From Escherichia phage LQ5: DNA of 64,000 nucleotides. The stretch is taken from sequence record OR677401; one strand, 5' to 3'. Positions 2,564 through 36,274 of the stretch are shown piece by piece. The first letter of the stretch is position 1; every line of letters begins with the position of its first letter. The notes under the pieces are model-generated. The model did not search any database. It had not been told where the DNA came from and saw only the letters and a list, made by a program, of their open reading frames with translations. Position numbers and translations under genes: made by a program.

Positions 2564-3256
<693 letters not shown>

Positions 3257-4486: not shown

Positions 4487-4771
4487 ATGCTATACGTTAA
4501 GGTTACTAATCCAGAGAATGGATATAATTCAGACCAGGTTGCAGCAGAGTTACTGATTCGCAACTTTGGCAAAGATGCCGTGCTTGATGTTCAACAGGTT
4601 AATATTGGCCGTAGTTCAAGCGACGTTAAACTCAAAGTTAACGGCCAACGTTATAATTCTGTTAACTTTACTTTTTATACCGCAACTGAAAACGGATTGG
4701 TCGAATACGACATCTTTAAAAATCCTTTGAAGATTGCTTCTATTAAACTTGATTACATTAATATGCTTTAA
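4487..4771 (+). CDS. hypothetical protein
   Basis: 94-aa ORF directly following previous stop. Confidence 0.5.
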   Translation: MLYVKVTNPENGYNSDQVAAELLIRNFGKDAVLDVQQVNIGRSSSDVKLKVNGQRYNSVNFTFYTATENGLVEYDIFKNPLKIASIKLDYINML

Positions 4772-4900
4772 GAATTATGTGATATTATTACTCTATCATT
4801 AATACCCTCTATTACCAAAGGTTCTTCCCTCAAAGAACCTTTCATAATAGACAAGGTCTATTAATTAAACTTACTTTACTTAATTTTATTTGAGGTGTTT

Positions 4901-5167
4901 ATGTTAGTATTAAAATTAGCTTTTTATGACCCTAAAACCAAGACAACAACTACCAAACGTTGTTCTATTTCATATGAATGTCAATTTGGCGAAGTTGAGA
5001 CTGATGGCGAGCCCTTTATGGCAATTGCCGATAGCACATTCGCTAAACCAAAAATAATTCCACTAGTTAACGCTGCGGCTTATCTGGTTGCTCCTGAAGA
5101 AATGACTTATCATACAATTCAGCACATGGCTAAAGATGATAATGCTCCTGCTGGATTTGTAGTTTGA
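4901..5167 (+). CDS. hypothetical protein
   Basis: ATG at 4901 with GAGG 8 nt upstream; ORF-track start 4895 is GTG. Confidence 0.45.
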   Translation: MLVLKLAFYDPKTKTTTTKRCSISYECQFGEVETDGEPFMAIADSTFAKPKIIPLVNAAAYLVAPEEMTYHTIQHMAKDDNAPAGFVV

Positions 5168-5287: not shown

Positions 5288-5953
5288 ATGTTCCATTACA
5301 CTTATAAAATAACAAACAAAATTAATAATAAAATCTATATAGGTGCCCATTCAACCGAAAATTTGAATGATGCATATTTTGGTTCTGGTAAACTCTTAAA
5401 AAAGGCCCAAGCCAAATATGGTATAGAAAATTTCTCTAAAGAAATATTAGAGTTCTTTGACGATAAAACCTCTATGTTTGAGTCAGAAAAGAATATTGTG
5501 ACTGAAGAGTTTTTAAAGCGCCCTGATGTTTATAATTTGAAATTAGGTGGTGAAGGTGGTTGGGACCATTTAAACACTGAAGAATATTTGGATAAAAAGA
5601 AAGAAGCTTCCTTAAAAGGAGTTGCCGCTTTTAAAACCAGATTTGAGAACGACCCAGACCTTAAAGAAAAATATCGTAAAATGGGTTCAGAAAAGTTTAA
5701 ACAACTTTGGGATAATCCTAAGTATAGAGAGAAATTTTCAAATACTAAATCTTTCTTGGGTAAGACCCATTCAGATGAAACCATAAATAAAATGAAAGAA
5801 TCTCACGCCAGAAATAAACATCAACAAGGTGAAAATAATTCCGGATACGGAAAAATGTGGATTCATTCTTTAGAAGAAAAAGTTTCTAAACGTATTAACA
5901 AAACGGATATTATTCCTGAAGGTTGGAATAAAGGCCGTAAAATAAAATTTTGA
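5288..5953 (+). CDS. GIY-YIG homing endonuclease (SegB-like) within the tRNA cluster
   Basis: N-terminal YTYKITNKINNKIYIGAH motif; Lys-rich NUMOD-like C-terminus; lies between the two tRNA genes as T4 segB does. Confidence 0.75.
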   Translation: MFHYTYKITNKINNKIYIGAHSTENLNDAYFGSGKLLKKAQAKYGIENFSKEILEFFDDKTSMFESEKNIVTEEFLKRPDVYNLKLGGEGGWDHLNTEEYLDKKKEASLKGVAAFKTRFENDPDLKEKYRKMGSEKFKQLWDNPKYREKFSNTKSFLGKTHSDETINKMKESHARNKHQQGENNSGYGKMWIHSLEEKVSKRINKTDIIPEGWNKGRKIKF

Positions 5954-5958
5954 ATTAC

Positions 5959-6033
5959 GTCCCGCTGGTGTAATGGATAGCATACGATCCTTCTAAGTTT
6001 GCGGTCCTGGTTCGATCCCAGGGTGGGATACCA
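5959..6033 (+). tRNA. tRNA-Arg (anticodon TCT), CCA encoded
   Basis: Hand-folded: acceptor GTCCCGC/GTGGGAT, anticodon loop CTTCTAA, T arm CCTGG-TTCGATC-CCAGG, 3' ACCA. Confidence 0.8.
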
Positions 6034-6271
6034 AATGAAGACTATTATATAGTCAAGCCGTCGTATGAAGACTGATTACCAGCATTCACCGGCGCAACAA
6101 ACAAGAAACCGGGTCGCTACCGGTAAGTCGTCGGACTGAAGTTCCCTGAATAAGACCCGACTTTAAGGCGTACATGAGTTGACCTCTTAAAGTCCCTTAT
6201 CTCACAGCTGAAACGGCGCACCGAACACTTGCCTAGCAGGTGGAACCCCGACAAGGTTACCCTAGGTTAAA
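6034..6271 (+). ncRNA. candidate stable small RNA(s) downstream of tRNA-Arg (cf. T4 species 1/2 RNAs)
   Basis: ~240 nt with no plausible + strand ORF, several local hairpins (e.g. ACCGG-gtcgcta-CCGGT), ends at an intrinsic terminator. Confidence 0.3.
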
Positions 6272-6299
6272 GGCCCTTCCGAAAGGTTGGGCCTTTTTT
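6272..6299 (+). terminator. intrinsic terminator GGCCC-(12 nt)-GGGCC + T6
   Basis: Hairpin followed by T-run; identical copy at 6897-6925. Confidence 0.7.
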
Positions 6300-6300
6300 G

Positions 6301-6308
6301 TATAAATA
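6301..6308 (+). promoter_or_regulatory. T4-type late promoter TATAAATA
   Basis: Exact TATAAATA about 28 nt upstream of ORF 6337. Confidence 0.45.
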
Positions 6309-6336
6309 TGTAAGTTAAACTAACCTAGGAAATAAT

Positions 6337-6891
6337 ATGAAACTTTTAAAATATTTGAGTTGGGTACTGTTGGTTCCACTGGATTTTATCTCTATGGTTC
6401 TGGCTGTTATCCTTGCACCATTTGTGGTTCCTTTCCACAATAAAAAGACAGGTAAATTACCGTACGGGTTTGATTGGATGATGACATACGATAATCCAAT
6501 TGACGGTGACAAAGGTCATATTAAACGTTGGGCTAAAATCAGGAAAATGCCAGGTGGTGTTTATCTCCAGAGAGTAGCTTGGCTATGGCGAAATAAAGCT
6601 TATAACTTTGCTTATCATAAACTTGGACGCGATTGTAGTTCGGAATTCCATTATCGTGGTAATCCTGACGTAGAATCAGGTTCTCCTGATAAAGCTCATC
6701 ATGGGTGGCTATGGATGTGGAATGACGACGCCTGGGGTGTATTTGCTTCAGTTCCTTATCTTAAGGTTGGTGGAATCACATTTTACCTTCGAGTGTACTG
6801 TGGCTGGAAGCTTAAAAGTCTTTTGTCTCGTAAAATCCCTAAGGCTATGTTAGCCTTCCACATAAACCCATTCCGGTTCTACAAGAACTGA
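6337..6891 (+). CDS. hypothetical protein with N-terminal transmembrane segment
   Basis: 184-aa ORF flanked on both sides by the same 28-nt terminator hairpin. Confidence 0.6.
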   Translation: MKLLKYLSWVLLVPLDFISMVLAVILAPFVVPFHNKKTGKLPYGFDWMMTYDNPIDGDKGHIKRWAKIRKMPGGVYLQRVAWLWRNKAYNFAYHKLGRDCSSEFHYRGNPDVESGSPDKAHHGWLWMWNDDAWGVFASVPYLKVGGITFYLRVYCGWKLKSLLSRKIPKAMLAFHINPFRFYKN

Positions 6892-6896
6892 TTCTA

Positions 6897-6925
6897 GGCC
6901 CTTCCGAAAGGTTGGGCCTTTTTTT
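6897..6925 (+). terminator. intrinsic terminator, duplicate of 6272-6299
   Basis: GGCCC-ttccgaaaggtt-GGGCC + T7. Confidence 0.7.
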
Positions 6926-6949
6926 GTTTCTAAAAAGTTTAAAAAAGAT

Positions 6950-6989
6950 GTTTACTCTTTCGTAGAACATGATACTATAGACCTATCAA
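6950..6989 (+). promoter_or_regulatory. early-type promoter cassette (GTTTACT + TGATACTATAGACCTATCAA)
   Basis: Conserved box read directly. Confidence 0.6.
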
Positions 6990-7013
6990 AACAACAGTGT
7001 GAAGGAGAGTAAA

Positions 7014-7277
7014 ATGGATAATTATGGTGAAGTGTTTAATTTCTTTATGAAATGTGTTCCGGAAGAATTTGGTGCCACAGTTAACGATATTAAGGTTATC
7101 GGTCCTGAACACCCGGTGTATGAAACCTATGCAGTAATGGGTAATGAAGATGGACAGTGGTATACAATTAAAGTTGTGATTAATATGTTCTCAGCTGAAG
7201 GTTACGCCAAATCGTCTACCAAAGTTTACCATGGTAATGATTTTGATGCAGAAAATTATTTCAATAATATGAAATAA
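7014..7277 (+). CDS. hypothetical protein
   Basis: ATG at 7014 after GAAGGAGAG; ORF-track start 6999 is GTG. Confidence 0.55.
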   Translation: MDNYGEVFNFFMKCVPEEFGATVNDIKVIGPEHPVYETYAVMGNEDGQWYTIKVVINMFSAEGYAKSSTKVYHGNDFDAENYFNNMK

Positions 7278-7280
7278 AAC

Positions 7281-7321
7281 GTTTACATGGGCTCATGATT
7301 AAGATATTATGAGCCCATAAT
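7281..7321 (+). promoter_or_regulatory. GTTTACA followed by perfect 10-bp stem-loop ATGGGCTCAT/ATGAGCCCAT enclosing a -10-like TATTAT
   Basis: Inverted repeat read directly; no T-run. Confidence 0.5.
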
Positions 7322-7335
7322 TTGAGGAGAACATA

Positions 7336-7734
7336 ATGAATATCGAAGATAAAGAAATGCAAGAGTTGTATAATTCATTAACACCTGAACAACAAAAATA
7401 TGCCAAAGAACTAGAGAAAGCTCTTACTTTCAACTTGGCAAAAACTGATTGGGCCGCGATGTATGAAGAAAAAACTAGATTAGAAATTGAAGCTGCTGAG
7501 AGAAATGAATGGGTTGTCGAAACCAAGATTTCTGATGGTGGTTGCTCTGTTGAGGTGTCTGCTGTAATTAAAGGTACCCATGGCGAAAAATCATGGGGCT
7601 GGCATAATGAAGCAAACAAACATATTGTTCTCTCAACGTCAAAAACTTATGGCCAAAGGGTTCCTGTATCTAAAGCTATTATTAAGCAAGCTCAATGGGA
7701 AGCCAATGAAATCTGCCTCGCAAAAATGAAATAA
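7336..7734 (+). CDS. hypothetical protein
   Basis: 132-aa ORF with GAGGAGA RBS. Confidence 0.6.
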   Translation: MNIEDKEMQELYNSLTPEQQKYAKELEKALTFNLAKTDWAAMYEEKTRLEIEAAERNEWVVETKISDGGCSVEVSAVIKGTHGEKSWGWHNEANKHIVLSTSKTYGQRVPVSKAIIKQAQWEANEICLAKMK

Positions 7735-7737
7735 AAT

Positions 7738-7773
7738 GTTTACAAACCTCAGAGGACAGGGTATAATGTCCTC
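7738..7773 (+). promoter_or_regulatory. sigma70-like promoter GTTTACA-N17-TATAAT with inverted repeat GAGGACA/TGTCCTC flanking the -10
   Basis: Read directly. Confidence 0.6.
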
Positions 7774-7810
7774 ATGGATTACAAAACGTTAACCAACTGA
7801 AGGAAATACT

Positions 7811-8404
7811 ATGAACACTTTAAAGAAAATCGTTGAATTCATTCGTTCTAAACTGGGCACCGCAATGGCTCAGAACCTGTCAATCGAAGACCAATACACA
7901 AAAGCTGCTTCTACTCTGATTGATAAAATCACTGAACTCCAGACTGCTCATGTTAAGTCTGTGAATGAAGAAAAACGTATTCGTGCATTGGCTAATGAAA
8001 AAGACCAGCTCGCTGCTTCTAAAGAACGTGAAATTCGTAAACTGATTGCCGAAGGCGCTGATGTCCAGGTACATGCTAAACTTGGCCTCCTTTATCGTCG
8101 TACAGCTACCCAGCTTCGTAAGAAAGCCGATGATTATATCGAAATGCGTAATGAAATTAAACTGAAGGTTAAGGAACTTGATGACTCTCGTCAGGAACTA
8201 GCCGTTAAGCTCGAGTACATTCGTGAAACTCGTAATATGGCTGCCCTTGGTATTGCTACTGCCGATGATGTTGTTGAAATCGCTGCACTGACCAAGATTG
8301 ATATTGAAGACACCCTACTGCGTGTAGAAACGTTTAAAGGCCCACAAGTTGGAATGGATACGACTTCTGCTGATATCGAAGACTACATTAATTCACTTAA
8401 GTAA
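7811..8404 (+). CDS. coiled-coil protein, possibly PspA-like
   Basis: 197 aa, heptad-rich charged helices; PspA resemblance is impression only. Confidence 0.55.
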
Positions 8405-8452: not shown

Positions 8453-8989
8453 ATGGGTTTATATGATAATTTGATATCAAATATTGATTGGTTTAAAAAT
8501 AGTGGTCTTTCCCATGAAACCAATTCAGTTCTTTATAGAATTCGCCAAGACCTAGGCTATTCAAACGATTTCTTAAGCAGAACATCTAGCCGTGGCGATA
8601 CTACCAAATTACCTTTTATTTTTGCTTTAGCTGAAGACCTTTCTTTTGAAGATGCTTTGGAAATTATTGACGTAAATCTGGCTATTCAACGAGTGGAATT
8701 CGCTGGGCTACGCTATTCAGTATACTCTTTAAATGAACCAAGCGATTATAAACAGCTTACTAATGCCGACGATGATTACCATTTAGTATGCTATTTGATG
8801 TTAGAAAATGGTGACCATTTTGGTATGGTCGACCGCCGCCCATCTTACTCTGATATTAAAAATTACGATAAAGACGAGCTTATTATTTTAGCCAATGAGT
8901 ATACATCAGAGATTCGAAAACAACAACGGAAGCTTAATCGTTTTATTGCTGAATGCCGTGAATACGCTAAAGAGGTTCAAAATGTATAA
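8453..8989 (+). CDS. hypothetical protein
   Basis: 178-aa ORF; C-terminal NRFIAECR motif shared with 8982 and 13203 products. Confidence 0.6.
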   Translation: MGLYDNLISNIDWFKNSGLSHETNSVLYRIRQDLGYSNDFLSRTSSRGDTTKLPFIFALAEDLSFEDALEIIDVNLAIQRVEFAGLRYSVYSLNEPSDYKQLTNADDDYHLVCYLMLENGDHFGMVDRRPSYSDIKNYDKDELIILANEYTSEIRKQQRKLNRFIAECREYAKEVQNV

Positions 8990-11251: not shown

Positions 11252-12211
11252 ATGATGTTAGTTATTGGTTCTCGTGCACTGCACCACGCTGGTCTGATTG
11301 AAAGTAAGCATATCGAAAATTCTGATTGGGATTTCATTGCCGACCAAGGCTCATGGAATCACTTTAAAGCACGTATGTTCGGCGCCCATGTACACGTTGA
11401 CAATCCTGGTGTCCAGGCTTTCAAATGTATGCATAATGGTAAAGAAACCTATTTTGAAGCTTATATCGTTCGTGCTCTGACTAACGTACGAGAAATTACC
11501 GGTGAGCTTCAAGACGAAGATTTCACTTCAAGCTATCGTCTCCTGAAATATGCTGAAAATCATATTAAAAAGGACCGTCTTACTGGTTTCTATTGGGCCA
11601 CCCCTGATATCTGTCTGGCTATCAAAACCTCTCATCGTTTCCTTAAGAATAATCCGTTCTTCTTGAAAACTATGTCACACATCAAATACCTTCGTAATAA
11701 AGGTATCACCCTTAACGAAGAACTCCAGGAAATTATGCTGCAACGTCAAAAAGAAACGTTGAGCTATTCTCACCCTAAATTGGACGTAAACAAATCATCG
11801 TTCTTTAATGATACCATTTATACGCTGGACCATGACTCTATTCATGAAGCAGTGGCATTGGCAGGGCGCCCTGCATATACCTTTTATATGAAGGAAGGTT
11901 CTGAAGTCATGACCTCTCGTGAGAAGTTCGAGGCTTTGCCTGAAGCTATTAAACTGGCTGGTGTGTATGAAGAAACTTGTGTCCTGGCACTAGAACGTTC
12001 ACAGGTTCCTAATGACTTCAATATTTCACCATCATTAAGTTTCTATATGGCCCTTGAGAAAGTGTGCACCTCAATCACTTCAGGTTGGTTCCGCACTTAT
12101 GCATGGGAAAACTACCAAGCTGTAGTGAATATGTATAAGACTTTAGGTGAAAACGACTACATTGAACGGTTTAAGCGTAACCAACATTTAATTCGTCCTT
12201 TCGAAAAATAA
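11252..12211 (+). CDS. hypothetical protein (~320 aa)
   Basis: ATG at 11252 after GAGGAAA; ORF-track start 11189 lies in upstream gene. Confidence 0.6.
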   Translation: MMLVIGSRALHHAGLIESKHIENSDWDFIADQGSWNHFKARMFGAHVHVDNPGVQAFKCMHNGKETYFEAYIVRALTNVREITGELQDEDFTSSYRLLKYAENHIKKDRLTGFYWATPDICLAIKTSHRFLKNNPFFLKTMSHIKYLRNKGITLNEELQEIMLQRQKETLSYSHPKLDVNKSSFFNDTIYTLDHDSIHEAVALAGRPAYTFYMKEGSEVMTSREKFEALPEAIKLAGVYEETCVLALERSQVPNDFNISPSLSFYMALEKVCTSITSGWFRTYAWENYQAVVNMYKTLGENDYIERFKRNQHLIRPFEK

Positions 12212-14029: not shown

Positions 14030-14471
14030 GAAAGTGAAAGAACTATCTGCCGGTATTTTATTCATGACCGTTGATAAAGAACTGGTCATGGGCCGTGTAA
14101 CAGGCTCTCGTAATCCAGAGAATATGCGTCATAAATGGGACATTCCTAAGGGTCATGTCGAACCAGGCGAAGAGCCTATTCAAGCGGCAATGCGCGAAAC
14201 CGAAGAAGAGATTGGATTCACAGCATACGATCCTGCATTCCTGAAAGACCTAGGTGAGTTCAAATATTCAAGCAATAAGAATCTACATCTGTTCTTATAT
14301 ACAGTGCCTGTGGAACACGAGCAGTTCAAGGATTGCAAATGTACGGCTTACCATACATTCCCTGATGGTCGTACTATTCCTGAATTCGATGCGTTCGCCT
14401 TGATTAAACGTCCGCAATGGGAATATGTCATGGGTAAGTCGATGTTTAAGGTTTTAGATTCGCTCTTTTGA
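14022..14471 (+). CDS. nudE: Nudix hydrolase (NudE-like)
   Basis: Nudix box GHVEPGEEPIQAAMRETEEEIGF; immediately upstream of lysozyme e; start 14022 overlaps upstream stop. Confidence 0.75.
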   Translation: MSKKVKELSAGILFMTVDKELVMGRVTGSRNPENMRHKWDIPKGHVEPGEEPIQAAMRETEEEIGFTAYDPAFLKDLGEFKYSSNKNLHLFLYTVPVEHEQFKDCKCTAYHTFPDGRTIPEFDAFALIKRPQWEYVMGKSMFKVLDSLF

Positions 14472-17810: not shown

Positions 17811-18021
17811 ATTGACAATTGAAGGTTCTGAAGAAGCTCTGAAAAGATTTGTTGAATGGCTTAATGGACCAGGTGAACAAGACTTTCTGGAAGTCTGGGA
17901 TGGCGGTCGGTGGAATGGTAAAGAAATGATTTACCCGACTACCTATATCTCCGTGCAAGGTTGGACTGAAGGCCTTCGTTTGGTAGAATATGATATCGCA
18001 ACTGGCGAGGAAGTGAAATGA
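17803..18021 (+). CDS. hypothetical protein
   Basis: 72-aa coupled ORF. Confidence 0.5.
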   Translation: MSKLTIEGSEEALKRFVEWLNGPGEQDFLEVWDGGRWNGKEMIYPTTYISVQGWTEGLRLVEYDIATGEEVK

Positions 18022-18296
18022 TTGAAGATATCAAGGGTTATAAGCCGCATACCGACGATAAAATCGGTAAAGTAAACGCTATCAAAGATGCTGAAGTTCG
18101 TCTTGGGTTAATGTTTAAAGCTCTGGAAGAAGAACATGTTACTCATTATATGAACTTAGATACCGAAGAGGTTTCTGAACAAGAACTAGACCAGGCTCAT
18201 GAACGCATCACCCAGATTCGTAATGCAATTGACCGTCTGAAAGAAGCAAGCATGTGGGCGTGTCGTTCCGTTTTCCAACCCGAGGAAAAATACTGA
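18018..18296 (+). CDS. hypothetical acidic protein
   Basis: 92-aa coupled ORF. Confidence 0.5.
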   Translation: MIEDIKGYKPHTDDKIGKVNAIKDAEVRLGLMFKALEEEHVTHYMNLDTEEVSEQELDQAHERITQIRNAIDRLKEASMWACRSVFQPEEKY

Positions 18297-25499: not shown

Positions 25500-25539
25500 G
25501 TTTACACCTTCGTAGAGCATGTTATTATGGACCTATCAA
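25500..25539 (+). promoter_or_regulatory. early-type promoter cassette (GTTTACA + TGTTATTATGGACCTATCAA variant)
   Basis: Read directly. Confidence 0.55.
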
Positions 25540-25565: not shown

Positions 25566-26546
25566 ATGTTAACTATCAAAATCAACAAAGGTATCTATCG
25601 CGGTAATGTAATCTCTGGTACGTTCATGAGTTCAGGTAAAACCTGGTTCCCTAATAAAATTCATGAATCCGAAGCTCACCTCGGTGATGGCAAGGTATTC
25701 GTACAGATTGATGGTGTTGAACGTGGTGTATGGGTATTCAAATGTGATATCGAAACCGAAGGCGCACCAGCTCCTGCAATGGTTACTGAATCCGCTGAAG
25801 AAATGAAACACCGTATCAACAAACGTTTTAAAGTAATGAACATGATGACTAACGGAATCATCGATGGTAAAATTCGTTCCCTTATAATCTCTGGTGCCGC
25901 AGGTATTGGTAAAACATATTCTTTGGATAAAGCATTACAGAATGCCCACGAAAATGAAACTATCGAATATAAATCAATCAACGGAAAGATTAGTGGAATC
26001 GGTCTTTACGAGCAGCTTTGGAATAACCGCGGCCCTAATAGTGTTCTTCTTATTGATGATGTTGATGTATTCTCTGATATGGATATCCTGAACCTGTTAA
26101 AAGCAGCATTGGATACTGGTGAAAAACGTAAGGTGTGCTGGAGCACTTCAAGTTCTTATCTTGATGATAAAAATATCGATAAAGAATTTGAGTATGAAGG
26201 CACCATCGTGTTCATCACCAACGTTGATATTGACCGTGAATTAGAGCGTGGAACTAAACTTGCTCCACACCTCCAGGCTTTAGTATCGCGTTCAGTTTAC
26301 TTAGACCTCGGAGTTCACTCGAACGAAGAGATTATGGTTCGTGTTGAAGACGTTATCCTGTCCACTGATATGATGCAAAACCGTGGTCTGACTGATGCCG
26401 AGACTTACCAAGCTTTAGCATGGATGAAGGCTAATGTATCTCGTCTTCGTAACGTATCATTACGTACAGCTCTTTATCTGGCGGACTTCATTGCCACCGA
26501 TAAAAATGACTGGAGCGAAATCGCTGAAGTTACACTTCTGAAATAA
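25566..26546 (+). CDS. AAA/P-loop ATPase with ~130-aa N-terminal domain
   Basis: Walker A ISGAAGIGKT, Walker B VLLIDDVD; ATG 25566 after GGAGAATATA. Confidence 0.6.
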   Translation: MLTIKINKGIYRGNVISGTFMSSGKTWFPNKIHESEAHLGDGKVFVQIDGVERGVWVFKCDIETEGAPAPAMVTESAEEMKHRINKRFKVMNMMTNGIIDGKIRSLIISGAAGIGKTYSLDKALQNAHENETIEYKSINGKISGIGLYEQLWNNRGPNSVLLIDDVDVFSDMDILNLLKAALDTGEKRKVCWSTSSSYLDDKNIDKEFEYEGTIVFITNVDIDRELERGTKLAPHLQALVSRSVYLDLGVHSNEEIMVRVEDVILSTDMMQNRGLTDAETYQALAWMKANVSRLRNVSLRTALYLADFIATDKNDWSEIAEVTLLK

Positions 26547-26555
26547 GGGTGAATT

Positions 26556-26897
26556 ATGTTTGAACAATTTATTTACAATCTTTATAACGCAGGTCAGACT
26601 TTTTCCAAAGCTATGAAACAGTCTGTTGAAGACTATACTAATGAATGTAGTACTAAGTTTTCTGAGAAATTCTATAAAAATCCGTGTAGTGGAGGAGACT
26701 TCAGGAGACTGCGCTTGGCCGTTAACACCCAGGCCTTAATAAATCTAGACCGCAAGCAGGTAAAGTTGGCAGGCGACTTCCGAGATGAACTCTGCGCCAT
26801 CAGGAATGAATATCGCATTCGTATTGAACACCAACGGAAAGAGAACACTCAATCCGCATGGTTTAGTGGTCAAGCCGGTGAAAAAAGTTTCTATTAG
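26556..26897 (+). CDS. hypothetical protein
   Basis: 113-aa ORF. Confidence 0.5.
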   Translation: MFEQFIYNLYNAGQTFSKAMKQSVEDYTNECSTKFSEKFYKNPCSGGDFRRLRLAVNTQALINLDRKQVKLAGDFRDELCAIRNEYRIRIEHQRKENTQSAWFSGQAGEKSFY

Positions 26898-26899
26898 TT

Positions 26900-26950
26900 G
26901 TTTACATCTCCGGTAGAAATGATACTATAGACCTATCAACTACTGGAGGT
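26900..26950 (+). promoter_or_regulatory. promoter/stem-loop cassette with arms ATCTCCGGTAG/CTACTGGAGGT
   Basis: Inverted repeat around conserved box; one G-T position relative to 15699 copy. Confidence 0.6.
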
Positions 26951-26954
26951 TATC

Positions 26955-27479
26955 ATGAACGCTAAAGATATTTTTTCACTGATTAATTTTAATAATGGTA
27001 ATTTCAAATCTGAAAAACAAAGCAAGTTCTTTAACGACGTTGCTTGCGGTAATGAGATTACCGTATCTGGAGGAGAGATTTACAAAAGCCGTTGGAACTG
27101 GATTGCTGTCATCGATTCAGTCGGTATTGTAGAGCTCTATAAAAACACTAACAAAAAACGTACTCTTCACTGGAGTCGTGAAACCAACCAAGCTTATCAA
27201 GCTGAACGTAACAAACGTTTAATGCCTACCGAATCCGACCTGGCAAACGTTAAATCTGATATCGCTTATTTCGATAATCTGATTGCTGAACAACAAGCTG
27301 TTATTGATAAGTTTGACGAAATCAAAGCTTGTAAAGAGATTCCTGAATTCATGCGGGAATCAGTAAACGAACAGTACGCCCTCACTTCAGGTCGTATCGA
27401 GCAGTACAAATCACAACGAGCTGAACGCCAAGCTCTGCTTCAGAAATTTGAAGAGCGTTTAAAGACGGTTCTCGCATAA
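26955..27479 (+). CDS. hypothetical protein with C-terminal coiled coil
   Basis: 174 aa; C-terminal segment similar to that of 27543 product. Confidence 0.6.
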   Translation: MNAKDIFSLINFNNGNFKSEKQSKFFNDVACGNEITVSGGEIYKSRWNWIAVIDSVGIVELYKNTNKKRTLHWSRETNQAYQAERNKRLMPTESDLANVKSDIAYFDNLIAEQQAVIDKFDEIKACKEIPEFMRESVNEQYALTSGRIEQYKSQRAERQALLQKFEERLKTVLA

Positions 27480-27482
27480 ACG

Positions 27483-27505
27483 CTTTATACCAAGGATGGT
27501 ATAAT
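27483..27505 (+). promoter_or_regulatory. sigma70-like promoter (CTTTATA ... GGTATAAT)
   Basis: Read directly; downstream leader ACTGAGGAAATTATTATG shared with gene at 35356. Confidence 0.5.
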
Positions 27506-27542
27506 GGTTCTAGGTTCTTAATTACTTACTGAGGAAATTATT

Positions 27543-28385
27543 ATGTCACAGGCAATTAATCAAATTCGTTCTGAAGTTAAAAAAGTTGTTAAATTTGGTC
27601 GTATTCCGAGTTCTAAAGAAGTGGTTGAAAAGGTTCTATATATGATGTGGGACAAGTTCAACGTTTGTACTGTTAAAGATGACTTCACTAAAATCTTTGA
27701 CAAGACCAGGTCGTTTACCTTAGAAGACCGGGTCATGAAAACTCTTCGTAAAACAGGTATGTTGTCTCGTGCTAATGCCAAAATTATTCTTAAAAATTAT
27801 AACAAAGGCTACGACCTCTATGGTCGTTTAATCCAGGCGATGTCATTTGACGAAGTGGTTCAAGACCTTCATGCCAACCAACGACGTCTACTAGCACTAG
27901 GTGCTCGCCTTGCAAAAGGTCAAGATAAACAAATGACCTTTAAGACCAATGGTTCAGGCGATTGGATTATCTTTAATATTGTTAACCACCCCGGAAATGA
28001 AAATGAGTATACCATTTCAACTTTTAGTGGTTGTCAATATGACAACTGGAAGTTCCATCTCCGATTAGCCTTGTCCGAATTAGAACAGCACGGTGTTCTT
28101 AGTTTTGGTGATGCCGAAACTGGGGTGGGTCAGCGTATTAAACTTTATAAAATTAAAGACCTGGCTGAAGAGCATTCAGAACAAGCTCCTAAACCGGAAC
28201 CTGTGCCAGTGCGCAGCAATGAGAAGCATCAAGCCCAGATTGAGTATTTTAGCAATTTGCTTACTTGCTTGAATGTTACAATTCAACAACAAGATGATGA
28301 GATTTTCCGACTCTCTGGTCTGAATGCCAAAGCCAAGGCTGAACGTCAAAAATATATCGATATCCTAAATCTTCTTAAGGATTAA
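27543..28385 (+). CDS. hypothetical protein with C-terminal coiled coil
   Basis: 280 aa; N-terminus MSQAI shared with 35356 ORF. Confidence 0.6.
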   Translation: MSQAINQIRSEVKKVVKFGRIPSSKEVVEKVLYMMWDKFNVCTVKDDFTKIFDKTRSFTLEDRVMKTLRKTGMLSRANAKIILKNYNKGYDLYGRLIQAMSFDEVVQDLHANQRRLLALGARLAKGQDKQMTFKTNGSGDWIIFNIVNHPGNENEYTISTFSGCQYDNWKFHLRLALSELEQHGVLSFGDAETGVGQRIKLYKIKDLAEEHSEQAPKPEPVPVRSNEKHQAQIEYFSNLLTCLNVTIQQQDDEIFRLSGLNAKAKAERQKYIDILNLLKD

Positions 28386-28387
28386 TT

Positions 28388-28603
28388 ATGGAAATTATTG
28401 GTTTTATTCTTGCTTATCTTGTGATAGGATTTATTACTGCTTTGATTGCGCATAAAACAGGCGCGTGGAACCCGGTTAAAATTGAATCAAGCTATGATGC
28501 GGTATTCATTACATTTGTATGGCCAGTATTTTGCTTTGCCTGGTTATGTATGCTAATTCTGTGGCCTATCGCTAAACTCTATGAAAAATTATTTGGACTC
28601 TGA
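28388..28603 (+). CDS. small membrane protein
   Basis: 71 aa, two hydrophobic helices. Confidence 0.5.
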   Translation: MEIIGFILAYLVIGFITALIAHKTGAWNPVKIESSYDAVFITFVWPVFCFAWLCMLILWPIAKLYEKLFGL

Positions 28604-28604
28604 T

Positions 28605-29474
28605 ATGAACATTAAAACACGTAAAGAATATTCCATCTATGACCATGACACGACTCGTCGTATCGCTATCGATCGGCTGGCAGACTTTGGCCATATTTGT
28701 AATGGTAATTATACTTATGGTGTAGGTCGTAAAGGGACTTATATTAGTTCTTTGAACGATTATTGCCGTTGCCCTGCTCATTTATTTGGTGCAACACTGC
28801 GAGCTAATATCAAAGACCTCTTGGCTACCGCAGGACGTATTTCTACGGTTCCTGTCAATATCAAGAATATTAATTTTACGGCTCGTAACCTAGTCATTAA
28901 TATTCTGCCTGACGGTATTCAAGTTCGTTTCCGTCCTACCTCAAAAGGTAATAAGGCCCTTCGTGAAGCATTCGAAACCTTATTCAGAGAGGCAATGACC
29001 CGTATTAAGGCAGTAGAATCATATAAAGTTACAACCGATGAATATGCTGATTGTTTTGAGCGGGCTGATGCAGTGTATTTTAATGTTAAACTAACTCGTG
29101 AATATCTTTTGTCTTATGCCCCTTATCAATCCCAACAAAAGGACCCACAAATGGAACGTCGTATCTCTGCAGTATCATGTGACAGTGTAGGCCAGTATGC
29201 GGCCTATGACAAATTCAAAACCACTGCTGTACCAAGCCCATTCAATTCCGAACCGTATCATTGGAAAATTAAACCCGAGAATTCTTTGGTGGTTACTAAC
29301 CCTACGATGAAACCTATCGAGAAGTATCATGAGGACCACCTCCAGGAATCAATCCACCGTTTAAACGGCCAGATCGAAGATGAGAAAAAGAGTATCCAAG
29401 ACGTATTGATTCGCATCAAGAACATGGAACTCCAGCGTGACAAGCTCCGCGCGGCAGTATTAGCTCTAAAATAA
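28605..29474 (+). CDS. hypothetical protein with C-terminal coiled coil
   Basis: ATG 28605 just after upstream TGA; ORF-track start 28581. Confidence 0.55.
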   Translation: MNIKTRKEYSIYDHDTTRRIAIDRLADFGHICNGNYTYGVGRKGTYISSLNDYCRCPAHLFGATLRANIKDLLATAGRISTVPVNIKNINFTARNLVINILPDGIQVRFRPTSKGNKALREAFETLFREAMTRIKAVESYKVTTDEYADCFERADAVYFNVKLTREYLLSYAPYQSQQKDPQMERRISAVSCDSVGQYAAYDKFKTTAVPSPFNSEPYHWKIKPENSLVVTNPTMKPIEKYHEDHLQESIHRLNGQIEDEKKSIQDVLIRIKNMELQRDKLRAAVLALK

Positions 29475-29475
29475 T

Positions 29476-29505
29476 GTTTACATCCAAGGATGGATGGAGT
29501 ATAAT
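29476..29505 (+). promoter_or_regulatory. sigma70-like promoter GTTTACA-N17-TATAAT
   Basis: Read directly. Confidence 0.55.
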
Positions 29506-29531
29506 CTTTTAAATCTACTGAGGAGAATATC

Positions 29532-30542
29532 ATGACTCGTACTGAATACATCAATGCCTTTACTACGTATATCACTACCAACACCCCTCCGTTAACCCCA
29601 TACGAGGTAATAGTTTCTAATATCAATAAATGGGTCGACCAAATTGATGATGCATTATCGCGCTGTTTCAAAGCTGAAATCGAAAAGATTGCAGGCCGTT
29701 TGTGCATTCATGATATCATTAAAACATTTAAAGGTTCTCGACTGCTTTCGCGCCTGGTCAATAAGGACATCCTTTCTGAGTTCGGTAAAGAGAAATACCC
29801 AGGTTCCAACCGTGTTGTTAACTACAAATGGTTTGGTGATACCATAAAAGGTTATATCAAAATTAAAGGTATGGACCCTAATAGTTTATTTCCGCAACGT
29901 TGGGTTAGCGAATTCAAGGCTAACTCTGCATTAATTCTCAAAGCGGCCTCTAAAACTATAGTTTCCGGTGATTGTCGTACTATTCACCCGATGGCTAATT
30001 GCATGATTAAAACAAATAGTTATAAAGGAAAAGCTATTATTTCTGTTATTTGGTCACCTAATAGGAAACCTAAAGATGATGCGGAAGTTGTAAAGTATCA
30101 AGATATTGCTTACGATACCTTGAATACTATCGAACAAGCTTTAGCTCTGATGGATACCGTAGAGAAATATGAGACCCAAGAAGTTAAACACCACTTAGGC
30201 TGGAAAGGATATGAAGTCTTAGTAACAGTCCGTGAAATCAAATGTACCGTTCCAAAAACTGATGCTGAAATTTACCAAGAAAAATGTGAGGAAATTGTGA
30301 ACACTGATAAAGAGCCTGCTACATTAGAAGATTTGATTAACGACTTGAACAGCCCTATCATGGCCCCTACACCAATTACTAAATCCAAGTTACCAGAAGT
30401 CGTTGCCTTGGAAAAAGCGTATAAAGACGCCCTTGCTATCAACAAAAAACTGACTGGCCAATATACCGCCGCCAAGAAACTTTGGGAAGAGTCTACCAAT
30501 CGTTTAGACCGTCTTGAACAGGCTCTGGAGCTGCTGAAATGA
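29532..30542 (+). CDS. hypothetical protein with C-terminal coiled coil
   Basis: 336-aa ORF with GAGGAGAA RBS. Confidence 0.6.
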   Translation: MTRTEYINAFTTYITTNTPPLTPYEVIVSNINKWVDQIDDALSRCFKAEIEKIAGRLCIHDIIKTFKGSRLLSRLVNKDILSEFGKEKYPGSNRVVNYKWFGDTIKGYIKIKGMDPNSLFPQRWVSEFKANSALILKAASKTIVSGDCRTIHPMANCMIKTNSYKGKAIISVIWSPNRKPKDDAEVVKYQDIAYDTLNTIEQALALMDTVEKYETQEVKHHLGWKGYEVLVTVREIKCTVPKTDAEIYQEKCEEIVNTDKEPATLEDLINDLNSPIMAPTPITKSKLPEVVALEKAYKDALAINKKLTGQYTAAKKLWEESTNRLDRLEQALELLK

Positions 30543-30760
30543 AATACCAATTAGCTGAAGATATTGACCAAACTATTCCTGATTGGAATGCCATTATTAA
30601 AATTGTCGAACGTCGTGAAAAAGCTTCTAAGAACGTTCCGAACTGTCCGGAATGTGGAACTGAACAGGTTCAATTGGTCCATTGGCAGACTAGTAATCTT
30701 CGTTACAAATGCCGCCATTGTAAACATAAATTTGAGCGAGAAGAAAATGGCAAAGCGTAA
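30539..30760 (+). CDS. small zinc-ribbon protein
   Basis: CPECG ... CRHCKHKF cysteine pairs; 73 aa. Confidence 0.5.
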
Positions 30761-30983
30761 AGAATATGTAGAGGCTGCCGATAAGGCAGTCCGCGAACTT
30801 ACTCTAGCTTATTATAAAGAGCACGGTAAATTTCCGGACAGTTATTCAGTATTGAAATCTGCTTTAACTCGCTCGTATAATAATATACTATCTGATGTGT
30901 ATAATTTAAAATATGAGCACATGGAAAAATACGGAACAGAACTCGACCGTTCTGAAGCATTCAAACAAATATTAGGAATTTAA
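30747..30983 (+). CDS. hypothetical protein
   Basis: ATG 30747; overlaps upstream gene end by 14 nt. Confidence 0.45.
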
Positions 30984-30984
30984 A

Positions 30985-31248
30985 ATGTTTAAAGTTTATG
31001 GTTATGATTCAAATATTCACCGTTGTGTTTTCTGTGATAATGCCAAACGACTGCTTGAGGTTAAGAAACAACCTTACGAATTCATTAACGTGATGCCTGA
31101 AAAAGGTGTGTTTGATGATGAGAAGATTGCCGAACTCCTGGCTGCTCTTGGACGCGAATCTCAGGTAGGTTTGACTATGCCTCAGGTATTTGCTCCGGAC
31201 GGAACTTCTATTGGTGGCTTTGACCAACTGCGAGCTTATTTCAAATGA
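30985..31248 (+). CDS. nrdC: thioredoxin/glutaredoxin NrdC
   Basis: 87 aa, near-identical to recalled T4 NrdC (MFKVYGYDSNIH.CV.CDNAKRLL). Confidence 0.92.
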   Translation: MFKVYGYDSNIHRCVFCDNAKRLLEVKKQPYEFINVMPEKGVFDDEKIAELLAALGRESQVGLTMPQVFAPDGTSIGGFDQLRAYFK

Positions 31249-32241: not shown

Positions 32242-33315
32242 ATGCAAGATTTCGGGCATTGGGCGGTATTTGAAGAAGTTGATATTAAAAATTATATTGG
32301 ATTTGTGTATGTAATCACTTTTGAAGATGGCAAAAAATATGTCGGTGCTAAAAAGATTTGGAAACGAATCAAAGCTGCACCTTGCACATTTAAACGTGGT
32401 CCTAAAAAAGGGTTTGAGGAATCTGATTGGAAAACCTATACCTCATCATCCAATGAATTGAACGCAATGATAGAAAAGGGTATAAGTCCAAAAGAATATC
32501 TTATTGTAGGATGGTACCCTACTTGGGGTAAAACTCTTATGGCAGAAATGGAAATGCAATTAGCCAATGATGTTTTACGAGACCCTATGTGGCTCAATAA
32601 ACAAATTGGCGGGCATTTCAACCCTAACTGCTTTGACGATTTAACAGAGGATGATATTGCAAGATGGATGGAATTTGATAAAGGGAATGAGCATGTTTCT
32701 TGGCCTATGATGTATAAAATTGGCCAGAAAACCAAGTACGTTAAACCTGATGAAGTTAGTGAGTATATTAAATCTGGATGGCAATTTGGTCGTTCTAAAA
32801 TGGAAAAACATTCTGTTACCTATAATTGCTCTAAATTTACTATATGGGACTATGAAGAAAACAAGCCGGTGGAAGTAATAAATCAAAACGAATTCGCTCG
32901 TAATAATGATTTAAGTAGCAACCATTTAACAAGGCTTCTTCAAGGAACCCTCGACCTAATTAAAGACCGATGGGGCCTTCCACCAGATATTGCTCGTCAG
33001 CGTTATAAATTTCAGGACGTTTCTTCAGGAACAAAATTTTTATCCAATTCCGAGTTAGAAGAATTTTACGGTATGACTCGCGGTCAGGCTAACAAAGCTA
33101 TTAAAGATGGAAGAGCTGTTAAATTAGTAGTCGAAAGCAAAGAAGACCATATTAAAAAACTTGGCTCTATCGAATTGGTAAAAACCGAAAAGACAAAAGT
33201 TACGTCTCAAGTAATGCTTAACAGTTTTAAAGATATAGTTAATCCTATGACTACTGCCGAAAAATCAGAAATGATTGAATGGTTGGAAAGTTATATAACT
33301 TATTTGAAATCTTAA
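32242..33315 (+). CDS. GIY-YIG homing endonuclease (Seg-like), free-standing
   Basis: N-terminal YIGFVYVITFEDGKKYVGAKK motif; 357 aa. Confidence 0.7.
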   Translation: MQDFGHWAVFEEVDIKNYIGFVYVITFEDGKKYVGAKKIWKRIKAAPCTFKRGPKKGFEESDWKTYTSSSNELNAMIEKGISPKEYLIVGWYPTWGKTLMAEMEMQLANDVLRDPMWLNKQIGGHFNPNCFDDLTEDDIARWMEFDKGNEHVSWPMMYKIGQKTKYVKPDEVSEYIKSGWQFGRSKMEKHSVTYNCSKFTIWDYEENKPVEVINQNEFARNNDLSSNHLTRLLQGTLDLIKDRWGLPPDIARQRYKFQDVSSGTKFLSNSELEEFYGMTRGQANKAIKDGRAVKLVVESKEDHIKKLGSIELVKTEKTKVTSQVMLNSFKDIVNPMTTAEKSEMIEWLESYITYLKS

Positions 33316-35322: not shown

Positions 35323-35355
35323 ACGGATTATAAATTTTTAACTGAGGAAATTATT

Positions 35356-35685
35356 ATGTCACAAGCTATTAAAAACGTACTGAACTCTTTCGCTTTCGAT
35401 AAAGTAAACGAACTGATGAATACCGGTTTTGTGACTCCTGAAATTCTTGACCAATGGGTTGCTGAACTGCTGCCAATCATGCACTCTAAAGACCAGAAAA
35501 TTGGTAAGAACGGTATTCGTGAAATCCTGGTTCAATATATCCTTGATGAATTCGATGTCGCTGCCTTTGGTGTAGAATCTAAAGCTTGGGCCCCTGGTGA
35601 AATCACGGATAAAACCATCCGTCGTATGAAAAACCAACGTAAGAAAAAATTCGTTGACCTGAAAATTGTTAAGGCAGCGAAATGA
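35356..35685 (+). CDS. hypothetical protein
   Basis: ATG 35356; N-terminus MSQAI and leader shared with 27543 gene. Confidence 0.55.
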   Translation: MSQAIKNVLNSFAFDKVNELMNTGFVTPEILDQWVAELLPIMHSKDQKIGKNGIREILVQYILDEFDVAAFGVESKAWAPGEITDKTIRRMKNQRKKKFVDLKIVKAAK

Positions 35686-36208: not shown

Positions 36209-36243
36209 TGCTTTAAAAGGGTCTTCAAATACTATGATATAAT
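36209..36243 (+). promoter_or_regulatory. promoter-like region upstream of gene 55 (TGATATAAT)
   Basis: Extended -10 TGATATAAT with box resembling the conserved cassette. Confidence 0.4.
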
Positions 36244-36274
36244 AGACCTATGATTTGAGTTATCTGAGGTAACA

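Follow-up and report, generated by a model that had tools for sequence, protein, structure and literature searches.

The T4 protein NrdC.5 is the genetic inhibitor of the SIR2 defence protein Dsr1 (Srikant et al. 2022, PMC9391042): nrdC.5 expressed alone allows a T4 deletion mutant to plate again on cells carrying Dsr1 (PMC9391042), and Dsr1 itself has been reported to sense the major capsid protein by means of a TPR sensor (PMC12803255). The adjacent gene nrdC.1 inhibits Septu (bioRxiv 10.1101/2025.11.20.689424) and the product of another adjacent gene, gp49.2, inhibits OLD (PMC13096335); the nrdC neighbourhood is emerging as an anti-defence island, in which targets are assigned for NrdC.5, NrdC.1 and gp49.2 only. 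Another phage accessory protein, DSAD1, neutralises the SIR2-type NADase DSR2 by direct binding (Garb et al. 2022; PMC11087589), and the tail terminator or tail completion fold (lambda gpU, SPP1 gp17, T5 p142) should also be named among the closest known systems. Here we discuss four consecutive plus-strand genes at positions 26955-30542 of a 64,000-nucleotide stretch of Escherichia phage LQ5 (sequence record OR677401; in the following, the window means this whole stretch), which an earlier reading of the DNA letters, the original prediction, had taken for a modular family with a common coiled coil fused to different effector heads. The family with its tail stands, the unrelated heads do not, and what we add is a modest point: three or four of these genes appear to form one paralogous family of head-linker-coiled-coil layout, related to the anti-Dsr1 protein NrdC.5.

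The window was assigned to the genus Dhakavirus (T-even phages, JS10/QL01-like). Its DNA at 26500-31000 shares 98.7% identity with phage QL01 and 91.7% with JS10, in which the four genes are annotated, in order, as nrdC.8, nrdC.6, 'hypothetical' and nrdC.4, followed by nrdC.2, nrdC.1 and nrdC. Judged by sequence, the four window genes are the orthologues of T4 nrdC.8, nrdC.6, nrdC.5 (DUF7235) and nrdC.4, all of them T-even accessory genes already catalogued. In blastp comparisons, the first product (26955-27479, 174 amino acids) is 68% identical to T4 NrdC.8 from end to end, and it falls into the PHROGs family phrog_2274 (E=1e-101); the second (27543-28385, 280 amino acids) shares 49% identity with T4 NrdC.6 over 181 amino acids; the third (28605-29474, 289 amino acids, or 297 from an alternative ATG at 28581) matches T4 NrdC.5 with 26% identity over 301 amino acids (E=2e-17); and the fourth (29532-30542, 336 amino acids) is 44% identical to T4 NrdC.4 and matches T4 NrdC.3 as well (E=9e-7). 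Membership in DUF7235 (PF23882) was taken to mean a full-length match to the Pfam hidden Markov model above the gathering score of 30 bits; the 28605 product scores 391.8 bits (E=3e-117, profile positions 9-307) and T4 NrdC.5 420.6 bits (E=5e-126). The Pfam copy searched, which lacks the models PF26897 and PF26899, gave no match for NrdC.4, NrdC.6 or NrdC.8. Precomputed assignments, on the other hand, place PF26897 (Phage_T4_Y04OP, covering NrdC.3 and NrdC.4) on each of the 68 homologues that the NrdC.3/4 profile retrieved, including one that is 98% identical to the 29532 product (P0074), and PF26899 on 108 of 108 homologues of the 27543 product, including one identical to it (P0121, 100%).

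The order of the genes is the same as in T4, and the window orthologues of NrdC.3/NrdC.4 (PF26897) and of NrdC.6 (PF26899) are 44% and 49% identical to the T4/RB7 proteins. Unlike T4, Dhakavirus is devoid of nrdC.3 and nrdC.7, and the N-terminal ~58 residues of the window NrdC.6 differ from those of Tequatrovirus NrdC.6. The 28605 protein resembles T4 NrdC.5 in being a full-length DUF7235 protein, in its position between nrdC.6 and nrdC.4 and in the same tail ending (QR.KL..A..ALK/N), but it belongs to a Dhakavirus/Gaprivervirus subfamily and is 23-26% identical to the T4 protein. All these families are restricted to enterobacterial Tevenvirinae (Tequatrovirus, Dhakavirus, Gaprivervirus, Mosigvirus), with paralogue sets NrdC.3/.4/.5/.6 in T4,.4/.5/.6 in Dhakavirus and Gaprivervirus, and.3/.5/.6 in Mosigvirus. 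The NrdC.3/4 family is very narrow, since its alignment, used as a profile against 1.84 billion representative proteins, returned 11 matches only, all phage-like and none bacterial; a search of IMG/VR for related loci found six close relatives only. Matches of the window proteins in PHROGs are confined to families of 'unknown function', and no PDB relatives were found for NrdC.5, NrdC.8 or the NrdC.3/4 and NrdC.6 profiles (all matches at E > 0.02). Likewise, DSAD1 showed no relation to the window proteins in sequence or fold, and it differs from them in lacking the head-linker-coiled-coil layout, its target being DSR2 and not Dsr1.

The four proteins had been described as carrying distinct N-terminal domains. 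This is not so for the products of 27543, 28605 and 29532, whose heads are collinear and linked by shared structural neighbours and weak profile similarities. NrdC.4 and NrdC.3 belong to the same family (PF26897; hhalign probability 97% over 211 columns), and NrdC.3/4 and NrdC.5/DUF7235 give collinear hhalign matches with P = 1e-4 to 4e-4, the probability for NrdC.4 against NrdC.5 being 34-58%. A metagenomic protein (P0231), which matches the NrdC.3/4 profile at full length and the NrdC.5 profile at its tail, and which ends in an NrdC.5-type tail (…TQRGKLLRAIQALK), is on these profile matches a bridge between the two families. NrdC.6 and NrdC.4 align collinearly over 259 columns (hhalign P=0.055), and their predicted structures have an identical order of secondary-structure elements, namely five N-terminal helices, two helices, a beta-hairpin, a helix, a second beta-hairpin, the linker and the tail; none of 1000 shuffles of the element order reached the observed score, whether whole proteins or heads alone were compared. 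In Foldseek searches of BFVD, the two models have four common neighbours (E = 1e-7 to 1e-2), uncharacterised proteins of the T4-like phages Pectobacterium PM2, Acinetobacter fHyAci03 and Acj61, and Serratia PS2. The NrdC.4 model further matches the NrdC.6 protein of Shigella phage Sf25 (E=2e-4), which apart from an internal duplication is a pure NrdC.6; in this 378-residue protein (P0117), 83 residues (176-258) directly before the tail are duplicated in tandem. Collinear similarity of the heads, taken as the sign of a common superfamily, was thus found for NrdC.3/4/5/6, and the support for one superfamily is good for NrdC.3/4/5 and moderate for NrdC.6. NrdC.8 is shorter and tied to the others by several marginal signals only, that is, collinear matches to the C-terminal halves of NrdC.4 and NrdC.6 (hhalign P ~0.05) and a Foldseek match of the NrdC.6 model to a 175-residue T4-like protein (E=0.08); it may be a truncated relative.

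The layout of the proteins can be read from the AlphaFold2 models, all of which are monomer predictions. For NrdC.4 (mean predicted local distance difference test score, pLDDT, 82), a confident alpha/beta head (1-240) and two short helices are followed by a disordered linker (257-285, pLDDT below 50) and one helix (288-335, nucleotides 30393-30539); for NrdC.6 (mean pLDDT 79), the head (1-205) is followed by a disordered linker (207-226, pLDDT below 50) and the tail helices 227-256 and 262-279 (nucleotides 28221-28382). The tail of the nrdC.5-like protein, also covered by the heptad analysis, comprises residues 238-289 (29316-29471), and the C-terminal half of NrdC.8 (residues ~98-174, 27246-27476) consists of two heptad segments with a proline between them. 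That each product ends in a charged heptad segment was a claim of the original prediction, and it is borne out by a home-made heptad score as well as by the family alignments. The best-scoring 28-residue window lies at the C-terminal end in four of four proteins (147-174, 230-257, 261-288 and 305-332, in gene order). Shuffled sequences reached the observed score in 5 of 300 cases for NrdC.8, 33 of 300 for NrdC.6, 1 of 300 for the nrdC.5-like protein and 40 of 300 for NrdC.4, so that the nrdC.5-like and NrdC.8 tails exceed the shuffles clearly and those of NrdC.6 and NrdC.4 only modestly. Among the 94 open reading frames (ORFs) of the plus strand, the last 45 residues rank 4th (NrdC.8), 10th (NrdC.6), 1st (nrdC.5-like) and 6th (NrdC.4). 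In the family alignments, the conserved hydrophobic columns follow one continuous register of heptad positions a and d over 47-54 residues per family, with a conserved-hydrophobic fraction of 0.63-0.73 at a/d against 0.13-0.19 elsewhere (matched by 0-9 of 2000 column permutations). A coiled-coil pattern, understood here as hydrophobic a/d periodicity over at least four heptads within a helix, was found in all four tails. Heptad scores, family register and predicted helices taken together, the amphipathic heptad tails are therefore real in all four proteins.

The tails are also the best conserved part of the proteins and evolve slower than the heads: in NrdC.4, the identity is 67-80% for the tail and 40-42% for the head (window against T4 and VR26), in NrdC.6, 59-61% and 28-42% (against RB7 and APCEc01), and in the nrdC.5-like protein, 71% and 49% (against the Gaprivervirus VR26). 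Between the families, on the contrary, little similarity is left. Of the six pairs of tails compared over their last 60 residues by Smith-Waterman alignment, only that of the nrdC.5-like protein and NrdC.4 beats the shuffles (z=3.9, 4 of 1000), the five others remaining at background. The recognisable C-terminal blocks proposed to be shared by the first two genes are therefore marginal at most: NrdC.8 and NrdC.6 give z=0.3 over the last 60 residues and z ~2 (108 of 2000 shuffles) if the last 85 residues of NrdC.8, with its IAYF...DEI block, are used, and hhalign of the two tails alone gives E=0.016 over 21 columns. With five of the six pairs at background, we gave up the view that a single tail module had been shared recently.

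The explanation towards which we lean slightly, taken as a whole, is that of tandem paralogues with oligomerising tails and anti-defence heads. The region is the nrdC.8-nrdC.4 part of the Dhakavirus accessory (hyperplastic) region, and promoters of its own, of early and middle type, probably drive its transcription ahead of replication. One ancestral gene probably gave rise to NrdC.6, the NrdC.5-like protein and NrdC.4 (in T4 also to NrdC.3) as diverged tandem paralogues; it would have been duplicated as a whole, with head, linker and tail, before diverging, a simpler course than fusion. Their common layout is an alpha/beta head of ~200-250 amino acids, a disordered linker (20-45 amino acids) of acidic or proline-rich character and an amphipathic heptad helix of 45-55 amino acids, which ends in a conserved hydrophobic-hydrophobic-Lys C-terminus; NrdC.8, with its similar tail, is perhaps a truncated relative. 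The tails would self-associate as coiled coils, so that each protein would display at least two heads, flexibly tethered; these heads, which diverge fast, may bind proteins of the host, with antiphage sensors or effectors as the likeliest targets, as T4 NrdC.5 acts genetically against Dsr1, and the slow-evolving tails would confer oligomerisation and avidity. By analogy, direct binding of the DSAD1 type is the kind of mechanism that we propose for the heads. Oligomerisation via the tails and the anti-defence role of NrdC.4, NrdC.6 and NrdC.8 are what we infer here; an oligomeric anti-defence family with diversifying heads seems the most likely reading, because the fast divergence of the heads, the conservation of the tails, early expression, dispensability and the anti-defence neighbourhood fit it best.

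Several points should nevertheless be held against this explanation. The homology of NrdC.6 to NrdC.3/4/5 is not significant by itself at the sequence level (the above P of 0.055), and the TM-scores of the Foldseek matches are low (0.3-0.5), which we ascribe to the flexible tails. Tail oligomerisation was judged from monomer models and a home-made heptad score only. The functional anchor of the whole family is a single protein, T4 NrdC.5, from which the roles of NrdC.4, NrdC.6 and NrdC.8 are extrapolated, and with 23-26% identity to it, the anti-Dsr1 activity is not simply transferable to the 28605 protein. Should the explanation be true, NrdC.3, NrdC.4, NrdC.6 and perhaps NrdC.8 would be nominated as candidate inhibitors of other defence systems, which makes the family a useful lead for the mapping of phage counter-defence rather than a new kind of system; the tail would become a testable functional element, and the frequent breaking and re-joining of the locus would be explained. 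It would be a long shot to assume that the tails of NrdC.3/4/5/6 (and NrdC.8) co-assemble into mixed coiled coils, giving a combinatorial multi-headed anti-defence complex with heads reshuffled by the deletions and chimeras of the locus, or, as a related option, that a head similar to tail terminators acts as a structural-protein decoy for host sensors.

Such rearrangements are indeed found, and they bear on the rather unlikely alternative of a modular fusion, in which a mobile coiled-coil module was recombined onto unrelated effector heads, possibly with the formation of hetero-oligomers. In Salmonella phage Manna, gene 094 (6215-7252) is an in-frame chimera of NrdC.6 (1-258) and NrdC.4 (251-333), joined at a 10-nucleotide microhomology (TGATGAAATT) with loss of nrdC.5, which amounts to a swap of tails. 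Deletion scars are present in ACG-C40 (3302-3713), where an nrdC.5 stub is followed by an out-of-frame nrdC.3 tail, and in Pinarejo (3001-3135), where only an unannotated remnant of the nrdC.6 tail is left. A protein of 336 amino acids from an ENA metagenome contig (P0048) aligns by its C-terminal 136 residues, tail included, with the window nrdC.5-like protein (blastp) and matches DUF7235 at 187-336, with an N-terminal part of 200 residues that has no Pfam match and is unrelated to the usual head; either its head has been replaced or the assembly is chimeric, as could be the case with a contig of only 1.9 kb. The better conservation of the tails and the NrdC.3/4-like head with NrdC.5-like tail of P0231 would also agree with a mobile module. 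However, NrdC.3, NrdC.4, NrdC.5 and NrdC.6 have heads that are collinear and resemble each other in structure, and tails of different families, the nrdC.5-like/NrdC.4 pair excepted, do not align above background. Besides these cases, the NrdC.6 linker of the Mosigvirus APCEc01 (5776-6771) carries an insert of ~40 residues (…ALKDLIDELNQD…), whose resemblance to the NrdC.4 linker (TLEDLINDLNS) hints at an exchange of linkers between paralogues.

The tails could also be docking helices for one common host or phage partner, without a role in self-association, the conserved extreme C-terminus being part of the recognition site; to this we assign a slim chance. The tails have a common short ending, hydrophobic-hydrophobic-Lys with or without one further residue (…ELLK, …LALK, …NLLKD), which is found in 5 of the 150 ORFs of the window, four of these lying within 25.4-30.5 kb (nrdC.10 to nrdC.4). 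It is also present on the neighbouring AAA protein NrdC.10, and in NrdC.4 and NrdC.6 no part varies less than the last 10-20 residues. In phage vB_EcoM_005, in-frame deletions (4606-5031 and 6941-7912) cut out most of the tail helix in both NrdC.8 and NrdC.4, sparing the last 8-11 residues of both (junctions …EFM|ERLKTVLA and …PEVVA|), although with a genome of only 155 kb these deletions could be either real or assembly artefacts. Against docking, it has to be considered that the partner is hypothetical, that the motif was defined post hoc and that an a/d pattern running unbroken through ~50 residues is less typical of short docking peptides than of coiled coils. That the four tails are unrelated generic features, amphipathic C-terminal helices being common in small phage proteins, is very improbable and already disfavoured: five of six tail pairs are at background and other ORFs of the window (e.g. 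18018-18296, 8453-8989) score equally high on the heptad measure, but all four adjacent genes are among the top ten of 94 ORFs, their best-scoring windows are C-terminal without exception, the heptad pattern is conserved across the families and the heads are collinear too.

As regards expression, the claim of promoter-like elements in front of three of the four genes was confirmed. A sigma-70 scan revealed early-promoter-like sites on the plus strand upstream of nrdC.8 (26901-26928, TTTACA-16-TACTAT, 9 of 12 positions) and nrdC.4 (29477-29505, TTTACA-17-TATAAT, 11 of 12). Upstream of nrdC.6, at 27478-27505 on the plus strand, a MotA-box-like sequence AAACGCTTTA is followed after 12 nucleotides by TATAAT (27500-27505), the motif GCTTTA ending 12 nucleotides before it; since the scan found no -35/-10 pair upstream of 27543, this site looks like a T4 middle promoter with a MotA box, which we presume it to be. 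As in T4, nrdC.4 and nrdC.6 each have their own promoter. No promoter was found for the nrdC.5-like gene at 28605, which sits behind a small plus-strand ORF of 71 hydrophobic amino acids (28388-28603), itself packed tightly against both neighbours and without a promoter of its own; in VR26 and PSD2001, a syntenic counterpart has been annotated. The promoter-like sites before nrdC.10 (25500-25539) and nrdC.8 (26900-26939) are 73% identical over 40 nucleotides, a similarity that includes the downstream GACCTATCAA, and their -10 part recurs before gene 55 (36234-36251).

The gene at 27543 had also been stated to share its leader and first residues (MSQAI) with the gene at 35356, and it does: the nrdC.6 leader with the first five codons (27515-27559, plus strand) is repeated at 35328-35372, before a homologue of gp55.2, with 84% identity over 45 nucleotides and an exact run of 23 nucleotides inside. 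Part of the repeat is a recurrent ribosome-binding context, ACTGAGGAAATTATTATG, with 5 occurrences against 0.17 expected. A deeper link between NrdC.6 and gp55.2 was rejected, because the repeat is limited to these 45 nucleotides and in part consists of the ribosome-binding context; by eye, the proteins are unalike after the first five residues. Promoter-early stem-loop (PeSL) cassettes, which mediate gene shuffling in the hyperplastic regions of T4-type phages (PMC2839356, PMC4122927), come close to the present setting, as the window genes have early promoters of their own and recurring intergenic and leader sequences in the same kind of genome region. As an explanation of the promoters they were ruled out: terminator-like stem-loops were found neither at 26898-26954 nor at 27480-27542 or 29475-29531, so that the intergenic regions of the window are not PeSLs as defined.

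Further downstream, the window carries a SegE-like GIY-YIG homing endonuclease of 357 amino acids (32242-33315; PF19835, E=5e-34) at the position that gene 49 (endonuclease VII) occupies in JS10 and T4; gene 49 was not found anywhere in the 64-kb window by tblastn with the T4 and JS10 gp49 as queries. Comparison with related phages also draws attention to the T4 reference genome (NC_000866). At 12067-12130 (minus strand), T4 nrdC.6 is one A short in comparison to RB7 (6500-6670), GCTGAATAT becoming GCTG-ATAT, which throws the last ~37 codons out of frame, and the intact tail (…FRLSGLSSKAKSEREKLIKIVDLLKS*) can be read in the next frame, within the annotated 'intergenic' gap before nrdC.5; this is either a sequencing error or a mutation of the laboratory strain. 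The same region of the T4 reference contains another C-terminal frameshift, in nrdC.10 (~14344-14370, minus strand), which has one extra G near its end relative to Manna (4680-4765), so that T4 NrdC.10 terminates in …ATGYSSEINS and not in …ATVTLLK as in Manna; the LLK ending is kept in RB7 (…ETVLLK) and in the window and other phages (…EVTLLK).

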